From: a plasmid
DNA: 64,000 nt
Direction: 5' to 3' (one strand)
Assembly: GCF_053078305.1 (NCBI RefSeq)
Contig: NZ_CP166875.1
Under the pieces are notes generated by a model. That model saw only the letters and a list, made by a program, of their open reading frames with translations. It was not told the DNA's origin and did not search any database. The position numbers and the translations under genes are program-made. Below, one piece after another: positions 36,615 through 40,981 of the stretch. Numbering within the stretch: position 1 is the stretch's first letter; every line of letters begins with the position of its first letter.

Positions 36615-36901
36615 AACGCGAAGGCTTCTGGCGGGATGTAACACCACCGCTCAACATTTATGGTGTCCCCCTGCCGTTTACCATGATTTACCTGCTGTTG
36701 TTTCCGTATCCGTCAAAAACGACATTCTGGGTGTGCAGCGGCATTCTGCTGTTTTTTATGCTCCTGGGATATTCCGGCTGGACAGTCCGCACCCTCTGTA
36801 TACGTCTGTACAGCCTGCTTCAGGGTAAGCAGGCATCGGGACGTCCCTGGTGGTACCGACACCGCACAGAATTACCCCGTGAATGGCACGGACCAGAATA
36901 G
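36611..36901 (+). CDS. small integral-membrane transfer protein (TraK position)
   Basis: 96 aa with two hydrophobic segments; start overlaps the traJ stop. Confidence 0.4.
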   Translation: MKREGFWRDVTPPLNIYGVPLPFTMIYLLLFPYPSKTTFWVCSGILLFFMLLGYSGWTVRTLCIRLYSLLQGKQASGRPWWYRHRTELPREWHGPE

Positions 36902-36964
36902 CCCTCTTTTGTCCATCATCCCGGCGTATCACAACGCCCTCATATTTAATCCCCGGAGAACGAC

Positions 36965-39900
36965 ATGAAGTCCAGATATCGTACCTGGCTTGCTGTCCCG
37001 CCTGAGGAGACAGAAGCCGTAAAAAATGCAGTCCCCCCGTTAAATGGCCGCAAAGCTGTCGCATGGGATCCAGAAAAAAAACTCTGGTATGCCCGGGCGG
37101 GTACCGAACTTTCACTGCTGGAGCGCTGGTTACCCCGGCCGCAGGAACTGTCGATGGATGCCGGCGATCCGGTCACCGAATTTGCTCAGGTCCTGGAAAA
37201 CGCCGGACTGGTTATTCAGGGATTGCCACAGATGGATGGCGCCATACACAGAGTCGCCACCCGGGATGACAAAAAAGGGGCCAAAAGTGGCGCATACAAG
37301 GCCTATCTTGATGGGCGCCCCGCCGGCTGGTACCGCGACTACCGGAGCGCCGATGACAGTCCCACAAACTGGGTATTTTCCGGCGGAGAACAACACGATC
37401 CTCTGGCCAGACTGCATCTGCGGGCATTCGCTCAGCAACAGCGCGATGATAACGCACGTAAACTGCAGCAACAGTACAACAAACAGGCCCGGTATGCCCG
37501 CTCCTATATTAACCAGTTACCACAGGCAACAGAGCATGAATACCTGACCCGAAAAGGGATCCTTGCCGCACCGGGCGTCCGTCTGAATAACAAGAATGAA
37601 CTCGTCATCCCTTTCAGTAACAGCCGGGGAGAAATACGTTCATACCAGCGTATTCCTGTCACCGGCGGGAAGGATGCCCGCATTCTGAAAGACTCAGAGA
37701 AAACCGGTAACTGGTTCACCTTCGGAACCCCGGAAAATGGCCGTCCCCTGTTATTTGCGGAAGGTTACGCAACTGCAGCCTCCCTGCACGAAGCCACCGG
37801 CCTTCCGGTTCTGATGACAGTTGATGCCGGCAATATGATTGACGTGGCAGAAAATGCCCGCCAAATCTGGACTGACAGCCCCTTTGTCTTCTGTGCCGAC
37901 AACGACCATCAACGGAAAATTAACAAAGGTGTTTCAAGTGCCCAAAAAGCTGCCGCAAGCACGCATGGCGAAGTCATTATTCCGGCCTTTACGGAGGCGG
38001 AAAAAGCACAGGGACTGACCGATTTCAATGACCTGGACGCCAGCAGGGGACGAGACGCCTTTCAGCGAGCCATGAACGCACAGTTAGAATATATCGGTAT
38101 CCCCACGCCCAACAATGACACTACTGACCGCCGTGAAGCTATCGTGATCGGCAACCTGATATTCACACCGGTAAAAGATGAGAAGCCACAAGTGTACCCT
38201 GAAAACAGACAGAGCACAGCCCCTGAACCGGCAGTGTCGGAACAGAATCATCCTTATGACATCCCTGCAGAAGAGACAGACAATCAGGCATATGAAGATG
38301 ACTATGCAGCATATGCATCCCTGCAGTCGGTAACTGCAGGGACAGCCTCCCCGAATGAACCGCAGGTGAATGCTGTTTCTGCCATTGACAGCAACGCAAA
38401 GAATACCTCTGCCGCCACCACTGACGACCGAAATGTATTAGCACAAGAACCCAATGCTGACGCCACAGTTACGACCACGGCTCACGACACCGGCACAGCA
38501 GAAACAGATTCACCTTCTGAACCTGCAGAGATTCAGCCAGTGCAGCAGGCCAGTCCTGAACCATCGGCTAAAGATAAACCACAGGAGAACGTAGTGTCTG
38601 CTACTGATAATGACGCAGAGAACACCTCTTCCGCCACCACTGCCCTCCGGAGTTACGACACACCGGAAACATCCGTCTCCGACGCAACCGGGACACAGCA
38701 CACCGCCACAACGCAACCTGAAGAACCACAGCAGGTCTCCATGGGCAGCGCTGACGACTGGAGCGCATTTGCGGAAGACCTCAATGCTGATGCTCCGGGG
38801 AATGCCACTGTTCACAGCACCGACAACGCGGAGACAAAGACACTTTCTGAACCTGCCGGGATGCAGCCTGTTCAACAGGCAACCCCTGAACCAACGGAAG
38901 AAAATAAACCTCAGGAAGAGGGCGTTATGTCTGCCACTGATACAGGTGAAGAGAGTGCCGCTGCCGCTATCGATGACGACCTGGACACAGTTGCGGAAGA
39001 CCTCAATGCTGATGTTACTGTGATGACCACAGCTCACCACACCGATACAGCAGAAACAGCCTCACCTTCTGAACCTGCAGAAATTCAGCCCGTACAGCAG
39101 GCAACCCCTGAACCAACGGCAGAAGATAAACCGAAGGAAGAGCGTCCAGTGTCTGCCACTGAGACCAGCACAGCGAATGAAACAGCCCGCCCTGAAACAG
39201 CATCGCTTTTCAGCCGCCTGCGCCGTTTTCTGACCGGTGGAAAATCACGTACCGCCGAACCTCCCGTTATTCAGGAGAACAAGCTTACGGAGGCCGAAAC
39301 TGCGACAGAGGCCGCAGCACCACCGTCACCACCTGAAACCAGCCCGGAAGACACATCGTCAGCAGAACCGGACACGATTATCTTTGCGCCCCGCCGGCCC
39401 AACAGTCCGCAGCGGCACAACCTGGACGAGATTATTAAAAATCTTACATACGATGAGTTACCCGACAATACTGCGCTCTGCCGCGTCGACGGCGAACCGG
39501 CATTCCTGGATAAACTCAACCGTCTGGAAATGGTGGATGGTGCCAGCACTGATGACAAAAAGGTCCTGGCTGCCCTTGCTGTGGCCACCAACTTCTATGG
39601 CGGCGTTATCGAGCTGACCGGCAGTGATGCCTTTAAACAAAAAGCCATGCAGCTGATTGTCGAATATGACATCAAGGTTCGCATGAAACTCCCGGTCCAG
39701 AGGGCTGCGCTGGAAAAACTCCGCCAGGAGAAAGGGATGGCGCATGATGCCATCGTCACCCACAGACCCACGCCGGAACTCAACCGCCTGTCACCGGAAG
39801 AGACAACAATGGCACAACCGGCCCCCCCTGTGTCACCGAAAGCAGAAACAGAGCAAACTGCAGGCAGTACGGCTGAAACACCGCATCCGGAAGCGCCGGT

Positions 39901-40981
39901 CACGGCAAAAGCTGAAGCCCCCCGGGCCGGCACACCGGAACAACCAGCCGCCCCGTCATCGTCAGCAGGAAACGTCGCTGTCAGTGCACAGCCACAGCAA
40001 CCCGACACACCGGAGGAAGAGCCCCCCGGCAAACTCAGACCCGGTGAAAGTGTGACTGCCGTCCTGACAAACTACGGAGAAAAAGAGTATGCGCCCGGAA
40101 AAGGGCGCTGCTTTTTTGTGGAGCTCACCAACCGCAGTGGCAAACGGGAATACTGGGGAAACGGCCTGGAAGAACTGGTCAAAAACCACCAGAAAGGCAA
40201 CCCCGTCACACTGACGCTGCAGGCGAGAGAAACATTCCGGCTGTCCGGTGAAACACGGGATCGTATCCGTAATATCTGGGCCATGACTCCTGTCAGTAAC
40301 GGCATTACCGTCGATAATGACCATCCTCATGCTGGTCAGCATATCCTGGATTTTCCGATGGCAACATTCAGCCAGGTGATGTTACAGATGCAACAACACT
40401 GGCCACAGATAATGCAGGAAGTTCGCTCCCCCAAAAATCCTCCCAATAATCTGTACATTGGTGAAGACAGGCAACCTGCATCAGCACCTCAGGATCAATC
40501 AATGCGACTCCCCCTCGCTGGTAATGCCCCCAATGAACTGATACCAGCCATCGCCTCTGCCGATAAGGACAATCGTCAGTTGAATCTTCTGCTGGTCCAC
40601 AGCGCAGATGATCATCTGCAGGGCGTGGTCCGCCTGAACGGCACCCTTTACCCGGCACTGGCCACCCCGTCAGCTGACAACCGTCAGCTGGTCATCAATG
40701 CCCTGACGGATAACGGTCTGCAGTTTGCCGGTTACGGTGAAGCTGTTAACCATGATGAGAATAATCATCAGCGTCCGTCCCCACAAATAATGCAGTTTCA
40801 CCTGAAGCAACAGGACTCCCCGTTGTTTGCCGCCATCCACAAACCGGAAGAGCAACCGGACAAGCTTTTCCGCTCTCTGGGTTTTGAGCAGACCTGGAAA
40901 GAGTGGTCTGACAGCCAAAAGGCGGAGGACAGGCAGGAAAAAACTCTGCAACAGGCACAATCCCACAGCCCCGGCCGATGA
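36965..40981 (+). CDS. sog: conjugative DNA primase, Sog-like (TOPRIM domain plus long repetitive acidic linker)
   Basis: 1338 aa; N-terminal TOPRIM signature (LLFAEGYATAASLHE...VDAGNM...FCADNDH...GLTDFNDL); central Pro/Glu/Thr-rich region with about 80-bp imperfect tandem repeats encoding SPSEPAEIQPVQQA.PEP....KP. Confidence 0.8.
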   Translation: MKSRYRTWLAVPPEETEAVKNAVPPLNGRKAVAWDPEKKLWYARAGTELSLLERWLPRPQELSMDAGDPVTEFAQVLENAGLVIQGLPQMDGAIHRVATRDDKKGAKSGAYKAYLDGRPAGWYRDYRSADDSPTNWVFSGGEQHDPLARLHLRAFAQQQRDDNARKLQQQYNKQARYARSYINQLPQATEHEYLTRKGILAAPGVRLNNKNELVIPFSNSRGEIRSYQRIPVTGGKDARILKDSEKTGNWFTFGTPENGRPLLFAEGYATAASLHEATGLPVLMTVDAGNMIDVAENARQIWTDSPFVFCADNDHQRKINKGVSSAQKAAASTHGEVIIPAFTEAEKAQGLTDFNDLDASRGRDAFQRAMNAQLEYIGIPTPNNDTTDRREAIVIGNLIFTPVKDEKPQVYPENRQSTAPEPAVSEQNHPYDIPAEETDNQAYEDDYAAYASLQSVTAGTASPNEPQVNAVSAIDSNAKNTSAATTDDRNVLAQEPNADATVTTTAHDTGTAETDSPSEPAEIQPVQQASPEPSAKDKPQENVVSATDNDAENTSSATTALRSYDTPETSVSDATGTQHTATTQPEEPQQVSMGSADDWSAFAEDLNADAPGNATVHSTDNAETKTLSEPAGMQPVQQATPEPTEENKPQEEGVMSATDTGEESAAAAIDDDLDTVAEDLNADVTVMTTAHHTDTAETASPSEPAEIQPVQQATPEPTAEDKPKEERPVSATETSTANETARPETASLFSRLRRFLTGGKSRTAEPPVIQENKLTEAETATEAAAPPSPPETSPEDTSSAEPDTIIFAPRRPNSPQRHNLDEIIKNLTYDELPDNTALCRVDGEPAFLDKLNRLEMVDGASTDDKKVLAALAVATNFYGGVIELTGSDAFKQKAMQLIVEYDIKVRMKLPVQRAALEKLRQEKGMAHDAIVTHRPTPELNRLSPEETTMAQPAPPVSPKAETEQTAGSTAETPHPEAPVTAKAEAPRAGTPEQPAAPSSSAGNVAVSAQPQQPDTPEEEPPGKLRPGESVTAVLTNYGEKEYAPGKGRCFFVELTNRSGKREYWGNGLEELVKNHQKGNPVTLTLQARETFRLSGETRDRIRNIWAMTPVSNGITVDNDHPHAGQHILDFPMATFSQVMLQMQQHWPQIMQEVRSPKNPPNNLYIGEDRQPASAPQDQSMRLPLAGNAPNELIPAIASADKDNRQLNLLLVHSADDHLQGVVRLNGTLYPALATPSADNRQLVINALTDNGLQFAGYGEAVNHDENNHQRPSPQIMQFHLKQQDSPLFAAIHKPEEQPDKLFRSLGFEQTWKEWSDSQKAEDRQEKTLQQAQSHSPGR

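Follow-up and report, generated by a model that had tools for sequence, protein, structure and literature searches.

Identity and Context of the sog Gene

The window, by which we mean the whole 64,000-nucleotide stretch of plasmid DNA analyzed, carries a long open reading frame for a homologue of the Sog protein of R64. The gene and the domains recognized in its product are as follows.

36965..40981, + strand: sog homologue, a SogL-type plasmid DNA primase of 1338 aa (open reading frame and homology to R64 Sog)
aa 6-57 of the window Sog, + strand: DUF5710 (Pfam)
37754..38056, + strand: Toprim primase domain, aa 264-364 (Pfam Toprim_3, E 3.5e-5; 24.6 bits, slightly under the 27.2-bit cut-off)
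37760-37777, + strand: EGYATA motif, aa 266-271, inside the Toprim match (identical in R64 at aa 268-273)
39482..39730, + strand: LPD7 domain, aa 840-922, the first folded domain past the linker (Pfam PF18821, E 2.3e-11; 44 bits against a 27-bit cut-off)

The coding sequence at 36965..40981 is 100% identical in NZ_AP017613.1 and in 22 other complete E. coli plasmids among the matches listed, and MOB-suite types NZ_AP017613.1 as IncK2/Z, MOBP, and MPF_I. RefSeq names the sog homologue coding sequences either "LPD7 domain-containing protein" or "DNA primase". A single blastp HSP aligns aa 3-1338 of the window protein with aa 5-1255 of R64 Sog at 52.9% identity. On NZ_AP017613.1, sog is flanked by traJ and a small traK-like gene on one side and by DotI/IcmL and DotH/IcmK on the other, and comparison of its annotation with R64 gives the same traJ-traK-sog-traL/M order, within an MPF_I type IVB transfer operon. 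Because 53% identity to R64 Sog extends over the full length, the EGYATA motif lies within the Toprim match, and the traJ-traK-sog-traL/M synteny is kept, we assign the gene as a Sog homologue. The plasmid is an I-complex plasmid of E. coli, typed IncK2/Z, and the gene is its sog primase. The preliminary description had called it a Sog-like primase gene, and the full-length identity, the motif, and the transfer-operon synteny bear this out. The PF18821 score exceeds the Pfam gathering score, which places the product among LPD7-containing polyvalent proteins.

Architecture of the Repeat Array

Between the Toprim and LPD7 domains, the reading frame passes through a repeat array with the following parts.

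38375..38593, + strand: repeat unit U1, short type, 73 codons, 219 nt (core 38510-38563; unit HMM score 127.9)
38594..38926, + strand: repeat unit U2, long type, 111 codons, 333 nt (core 38840-38893; unit HMM score 105.9)
38642-38752, + strand: insertion of 37 codons in U2 (unit alignment)
38927..39148, + strand: repeat unit U3, short type, 74 codons, 222 nt (core 39062-39115; unit HMM score 130.4)
39149..39205, + strand: truncated fourth unit head, VSATETSTANETARPETAS (VSATE...), which closes the array (head-element family and alignment)

These are three contiguous, in-frame repeats of about 74 codons, and their similarity is far above chance. U1-U3 abut head to tail in frame, and their lengths of 219, 333, and 222 nt are all multiples of three. 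A repeat search found a 30-nt head element four times (38374, 38593, 38926, and 39148) and, spaced 330 and 222 apart, three copies of 209 nt with 64-76% identity. Tandem Repeats Finder reports a period of 222 with 1.9 copies, 79% matches, and a score of 534. The longest exact match between any two units of the window is 24 nt.

The best-conserved part of each unit is its core, which reads SPSEPAEIQPVQQASPEP at 38510-38563, TLSEPAGMQPVQQATPEP at 38840-38893, and SPSEPAEIQPVQQATPEP at 39062-39115. These are the three motif copies that the preliminary description had placed near 38512, 38843, and 39062, and its spacing of about 220-330 bp agrees with the 330 and 222 of the repeat search. Its further reading of the locus as tandem repeats of about 80 bp was right as to tandem repetition and wrong as to size, in that the unit measures 219-333 nt and the 80-bp motif corresponds to the core only. 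The cores themselves are not tandem copies; it is the whole 219-, 333-, and 222-nt units that abut. The array also begins at 38375, 85 nt further upstream than the 38460 given there.

A self dot-plot had been proposed for 38400-39250. Run over 38200-39300, it yields 333 windows in which 22 or more of 30 positions match, and these all fall on diagonals 552, 222, 330, and 219. Codon-shuffled versions of the same interval (n = 200) average 0.32 matching windows and never exceed 8. Because the shuffles yield next to no such windows against 333 observed, the array is not a product of composition bias, and the repeats go far beyond what shuffled composition provides.

Composition and Predicted Disorder of the Linker

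The array lies within a longer low-complexity segment, which is followed by a short helix.

38165..39199, + strand: acidic low-complexity linker, aa 401-745 (345 aa), containing the array (composition, charge-hydropathy, and AlphaFold2)
39209..39232, + strand: FSRLRRFL, a short, basic, amphipathic helix immediately following the array (AlphaFold2 helix, model residues 370-377)

Most residues of the low-complexity region are Ala, Thr, Glu, Asp, Pro, or Ser. The linker (aa 401-745) holds 69 Asp and Glu residues against 14 Lys and Arg, for a net charge of -55; within the 258 residues of the repeat array, 53 are acidic and 10 basic, for a net charge of -43. The mean hydropathy of the linker, 0.392, falls below the charge-hydropathy boundary of 0.471, which predicts an unfolded chain. 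The array sits in an acidic linker rich in Ala, Thr, Glu, Asp, and Pro, between the TOPRIM domain at aa 264-364 and LPD7 at aa 840-922; an acidic linker rich in Pro, Thr, and Glu between the TOPRIM and C-terminal domains had been proposed.

An AlphaFold2 model of aa 380-960 gives the linker a pLDDT of about 30-35 and no secondary structure, from a shallow alignment of 5 sequences. In the same run the LPD7 region reaches a pLDDT of 50-77 with defined alpha/beta elements. The low linker pLDDT is weaker evidence of disorder than it appears, because the alignment has 5 sequences and the LPD7 control itself reaches only 50-77. The position of the FSRLRRFL helix is conserved in R64, which has SSFLDKARGFFTRKK there. 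The array has no match in Pfam, NCBIfam, PDB, or Rfam (NCBIfam and PDB were queried with the whole protein), and an Rfam scan of 38000-39500 at E <= 1 found nothing. Taken with the model, the composition suggests that the array probably encodes an acidic, unstructured spacer between Toprim and LPD7.

A folded repeat domain (Ig-like or a beta-solenoid) was considered and rejected on the pLDDT of about 30, the lack of a family match, and the charge-hydropathy prediction of an unfolded chain. Two overlapping open reading frames, one antisense at 38510-39040 (176 aa) and one in the +2 frame at 38610-39023, were likewise rejected as genes; neither has a family match, and both are taken as by-products of composition.

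A Candidate SogS Start Upstream of the Array

For the IncI1 plasmid pESBL, SogL and SogS coordinates are available (PMC4288162), sogS having been added there on the basis of its identity to R64. Mapped on the R64 translation, the pESBL SogS start is M412, and the protein and codon alignment brings one codon of the window into register with it.

38192..38194, + strand: GTG codon 410, aligned with the annotated IncI1 SogS start (R64 M412)

The aligned codon is GTG here, and the same position is ATG in alleles L006-L009. The Shine-Dalgarno match of GTG 410 is weak, at -2.7 kcal/mol. By the alignment, codon 410 is the putative SogS start in this plasmid. The repeat array lies downstream of this codon, and translation restart there, if used, would place the spacer in both SogL and SogS.

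Copy-Number Variation among Relatives

We compared repeat number among homologous Sog proteins with a unit HMM built from U1-U3 and run on the best 120 homologue clusters. The unit HMM was used in place of a regular-expression count of the core motif, which had missed divergent units. Homologues carry one, two, three, or four units, and protein length is quantized to match.

One unit: a 1154-aa protein
Two units: proteins of 1261-1267 and 1302 aa
Three units: proteins of 1335-1355 aa, plus one of 1296 aa
Four units: proteins of 1405, 1458, and 1463 aa

Two proteins lie outside these length bands, one of 1165 aa with two units and one of 1248 aa with three, and both are N-terminally truncated or partial. 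The reading frame is open throughout in 120 of 120 homologues and in 8 of 8 DNA alleles. Both parts of the earlier suggestion on this point were borne out, namely that repeat number varies among sog homologues and that it changes the length of the linker.

Seven arrangements of short and long units were seen: short-long-short (the type of the window, and the commonest), short-long, long-short, short-short, short alone, short-long-long-short, and short-short-long-short. HMM-based architectures were preferred here to a regular-expression segmentation, which misclassified some proteins; the HMM labels in turn give long-short alleles as short-short, the HMM envelope omitting the long head. For allele L010, in which weak extra HMM matches confuse units 2 and 3, the architecture is that given by Tandem Repeats Finder. 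No distribution was drawn from tblastn places per record, which undercount units (CP088437.1 has 2 places and 3 HMM units).

Both fewer and more units than in the window occur on complete plasmids. CP070395.1 has two units, the second of them a hybrid, and NZ_OQ534116.1 has a 1463-aa coding sequence with 4 units in which the long unit is duplicated, with a 360-nt period at 88% matches. Units also correspond by position across alleles; for instance, unit 2 of P0003 shares 91-96% identity with unit 3 of P0100 and of P0079. Since units are orthologous by position, the array is old and reshuffled and not a recent amplification.

Deletion Junctions

Three DNA alleles, L003, L004, and L005, have flanks 94.4-100% identical to the window and differ from it by single-crossover, in-register hybrids of two units. 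L003 is a U2/U3 hybrid with the switch inside a 22-nt identity block, CAGGCAACCCCTGAACCAACGG. L004 is a U1/U2 hybrid with the switch inside CCGCCACCACTG, and its flanks are 100% and 99.3% identical to the window. L005 is a U1/U3 hybrid that switches inside ACAGCAGAAACAG, leaving a single unit. The crossover identity blocks span 12-22 nt, and two of the three are only 12-13 nt long.

Short-read assemblies supplied two of these junctions and a metagenome assembly the third. The hybrids are not de Bruijn collapses at k >= 31, because the longest exact match between units is only 24 nt and so falls short of the k-mers of the assemblers in question. P0005 and P0118 were each found on several contigs, and the single-unit allele on five.

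Copy change by slipped-strand or recombinational events had been suggested beforehand, and the junctions are clean in-register hybrids of the kind that either process predicts. RecA-dependent recombination in E. coli requires roughly 23-27 bp of identity. The two junctions whose blocks measure just 12-13 nt are therefore more likely to have arisen by RecA-independent replication slippage or template switching, while homologous recombination would be possible at blocks of 22-24 nt. Sequence comparison alone does not discriminate between slippage and RecA-dependent recombination. In the mechanism we propose, neighboring units would mispair and cross over within identity blocks of 12-24 nt, and each event would add or remove whole units with the frame kept. 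Replication slippage or template switching would be the most likely path overall, with homologous recombination possible at the longest blocks.

Age, Selection, and Stability of the Units

Paralogous cores within the window differ by a dS of 0.44-0.89 with dN/dS of 0.21-0.53, the value for U1-U3 being 0.21. Because core dS is high and dN/dS is below 1, the duplications are old and the constraint acts on the peptide and not on the DNA. When the window is compared with four other alleles, the repeats show a dN/dS of 0.44-0.53; the corresponding range for the Toprim, LPD7, and C-terminal regions is 0.13-0.36. Across 13 diverse units, core positions E49, P50, A51, E62, K68, and E71 never change, and change is rare at Q54, P55, and V56. 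These substitution patterns indicate that constraint on the repeats is relaxed yet present, a moderate purifying selection on the protein that is strongest in the core SEPAxxQPVQQATPEP...DKPQEE.

The three-unit allele is 100% identical in at least 23 complete plasmids, with pigs, cattle, sheep, humans, and shellfish as sources; over the array, identity reaches at least 99% in 63 PLSDB records. The protein cluster of the three-unit allele counts 2310 sequences; for the three deletion alleles looked up, the number of contigs is 1-9. Copy-number events are rare on these counts, which argue against a fast switch.

Lineage Restriction and Relation to Known Systems

In PLSDB, 1785 plasmids match the sog gene and 444 match the array, by DNA query or unit peptide. 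When a profile of 13 diverse units was run on 1.84 billion representative proteins, it matched 13 of them, namely 12 Sog proteins or fragments, some of them frameshifted, and one spurious repetitive protein; outside Sog, this search found no unit beyond that spurious match. Judged by these databases, the repeat unit is restricted to the IncB/O/K/Z branch of I-complex plasmids.

Sog of R64/ColIb-P9 resembles the window Sog in its EGYATA-containing Toprim domain, DUF5710, LPD7, traK-traL position, and acidic linker of similar length rich in Pro, Ser, Thr, and Glu. The R64 linker (aa ~412-720), however, shows no internal repeats on self-comparison and no match to the unit HMM. It contains a 23-aa segment, TDTAEPAVRDEPTPQQPVQSTSP, in single copy just before the conserved basic helix, the same position as the core. 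As a homologue of the core this segment is no more than a weak lead, with 12 of 23 residues identical and z of 0.9-2.6 against composition-preserving shuffles, which is not significant. R64 also carries a nuclease gene between traK and sog, which the window plasmid lacks.

SogL of R64 is cited as a transferred early-function protein (PMC5512222), and transfer is known for Sog of ColIb-P9/R64; the window Sog, which the preliminary description took as likely exported to recipients, may be transferred as well. Like the LPD polyvalent proteins described by Iyer et al. 2017 (PMC5512222), it is multidomain, carries LPD7, and is plasmid-encoded. The text of that paper mentions neither LPD7 by name nor a Sog repeat array, and the tandem units match none of the LPD domains described. 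TraC of the IncP plasmid RP4 is a plasmid primase transferred in conjugation (PMC5512222) and shares with the window Sog a Toprim domain. There is no indication of a similar array in TraC, and apart from the spurious match the unit profile found only Sog sequences among the 1.84 billion proteins. Our literature search, whose reach ended short of the original sog sequence papers, returned no description of the repeat array. The Sog family is well known, and the array is an in-frame coding VNTR in a linker predicted to be disordered.

Among exported or surface proteins of bacteria, the alpha C protein of group B streptococci has in-frame tandem repeats of 246 nt with copy-number variation. Proteins of this type and Sog are alike in having head-to-tail units that are multiples of three, in-register gain and loss, and quantized length. 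The Sog units, in contrast to alpha C-type repeats, are old and 64-79% identical, so that events are rare, and Sog is a DNA-processing enzyme, reportedly delivered to a recipient bacterium, and not an antigen under immune selection.

Interpretation of the Array

The explanation we favor, and hold to be quite probable, is that a variable in-frame array of old units of about 74 codons serves Sog as a length-tolerant, flexible, acidic tether, with occasional copy change of the slippage type. The spacer would separate the N-terminal Toprim primase from LPD7 and the C-terminal part, with one unit type carrying an insertion of 37-46 codons. That Sog tolerates from one to four units suggests that the array acts mainly as such a tether.

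The conservation of the core raises the question of a more specific role. It might be a short linear motif, either one rich in Glu that the type IVB coupling complex recognizes or one that binds a recipient factor, in which case unit number would tune the export or action of Sog. In its favor, the core is far better conserved than the rest of the unit across the 13 diverse units, the U1-U3 core dN/dS of 0.21 is low, and R64 has the weakly similar TDTAEPAVRDEPTPQQPVQSTSP before its conserved basic helix. The R64 likeness does not stand out from shuffles, however, and single-unit alleles exist on five contigs; R64 Sog has no repeats and yet is transferred according to the literature; and no described family matches. 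A linear motif of this kind is in our view unlikely. We give slightly less credence still to the core SEPAxxQPVQQATPEP...DKPQEE being a multivalent motif, an acidic coupling signal or a decoy or binding site in the recipient, that is amplified here and single or absent in IncI1. In that case, how much Sog is delivered, or how active it is, would be adjusted as units are gained or lost.

The array could also be a contingency locus, a programmed high-frequency switch of Sog length, as close relatives differ in copy number and several independent junction types exist. Against this, units that share 64-79% identity, and no exact match longer than 24 nt, are a poor slippage substrate, and all variants are in frame, which leaves no on/off switching. 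The three-unit allele is moreover unchanged across at least 23 complete plasmids, with near-identical copies in the 63 PLSDB records, and the contrast of 2310 cluster sequences to 1-9 contigs per deletion allele points the same way. Because one three-unit allele is identical across so many plasmids, a programmed high-frequency switch is disfavored, and we consider it very improbable. A simple-sequence phase-variable locus, with near-identical units of 1-9 nt whose slippage shifts the frame or alters promoter spacing, was rejected outright, the units being 219-333 nt long and 64-79% identical, with the frame kept.

We regard as equally improbable that the repeats act as DNA or RNA elements, such as iterons, an internal promoter or ribosome binding site, or structured RNA, for example by giving nested Sog isoforms from starts at unit boundaries. 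The sequence does place AGGAG or GGAAGAG, which resemble Shine-Dalgarno sites, ahead of GTG or ATG at 38594, 38927, and 39149, and among the gene's 40 in-frame start candidates these three boundaries rank 1st, 3rd, and 5th. The purine-rich stretch, however, consists of the codons of the conserved KPQEE peptide, and the internal boundaries are not start codons in L006-L009, in which only the GTG of the last boundary is kept. Since start codons are not conserved in divergent alleles, unit-boundary internal starts were rejected as the main explanation. The inter-unit dS of 0.44-0.89 with dN/dS below 1 indicates conservation at the protein level, and Rfam gave no match. That there are no true repeats, only composition bias or an assembly artifact in a region of low complexity, is excluded for practical purposes by the codon shuffles, by unit HMM scores of 106-130 bits, and by the recurrence of one and the same sequence in numerous complete plasmids that were assembled independently.

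With one to four copies in related plasmids, the array amounts to an ordinary length polymorphism, real but no new mechanism, and its practical value is modest. The gene that it affects is a core transfer gene of resistance and virulence plasmids of the IncB/O/K/Z type. The variation shows that the acidic spacer of a protein reported as translocated withstands a roughly three-fold change in length, and this tolerance limits models that demand a fixed distance from the primase to the C-terminal part. Should the core instead be a recognition motif, the natural alleles with one to four units would offer a ready dosage series. For annotation, a sog allele with a length between about 1154 and 1463 aa is to be read as a natural variant and not as a misassembly or pseudogene. 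The array explains the inconsistent sog gene names given by annotation pipelines, and it can be used as a typing marker.

Mosaic Structure of sog Alleles

We compared the window sog gene (36965-40981) with four divergent alleles (L006-L009) and found that dS swings from 0.0 to 0.55 between adjoining gene segments. The L006 allele has a dS of 0 relative to the window across aa 401-470, and L009 likewise shows a dS of 0 in aa 928-1025, yet 0.55 in the adjoining C-terminus. These jumps in dS from one segment to the next indicate that the sog alleles are recombinant mosaics.

Candidate Internal Translation Starts

The codon aligned with the annotated start of the short product, SogS, of IncI1 plasmids (Met412, R64 numbering) is GTG in the window (38192-38194) and ATG in L006-L009. 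The Shine–Dalgarno match 5' of this putative start is weak and identical in all five alleles. SogS output from the window allele may therefore be unlike that of the ATG alleles.

Further start-like signals, consisting of AGGAG or GGAAGAG followed 5-7 nt on by an in-frame GTG or ATG, are present at every boundary of the repeat units (38594, 38927, and 39149). These candidates rank first, third, and fifth among 40 in-frame candidates in sog. Only the last one, past the final unit at 39149, is kept in the divergent alleles.

Sequence Features Surrounding the Array

Two elements lie downstream of the array within sog, and two additional ORFs overlap it:

39209-39232, basic amphipathic helix FSRLRRFL, directly 3' of the array (helix by AlphaFold2 prediction)
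39746-40039 (aa 928-1025), second low-complexity stretch, Pro/Ala/Glu/Thr-rich, between the LPD7 domain and the C-terminal region
38510-39040, - strand, antisense ORF of 176 aa
38610-39023, +2-frame ORF of 137 aa

From the end of the acidic linker to LPD7, nothing but the FSRLRRFL helix is conserved; R64 Sog carries FLDKARGFFTRKK at the matching position, indicating positional conservation. In the scans performed, no internal repeats turned up within the aa 928-1025 stretch. Neither overlapping ORF has a family match, and both are probably by-products of biased composition.

Several public "proteins" matching the repeat unit (including P0126 and P0130) are fragmentary or frameshifted translations of the array, which suggests that this region is error-prone in public data, at either sequencing or assembly.

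Upstream, sog lies directly 3' of a traK-like gene (junction at ~36900-36965), whereas in R64 the phospholipase D family nuclease gene nuc sits between traK and sog (L002:40341-40997).
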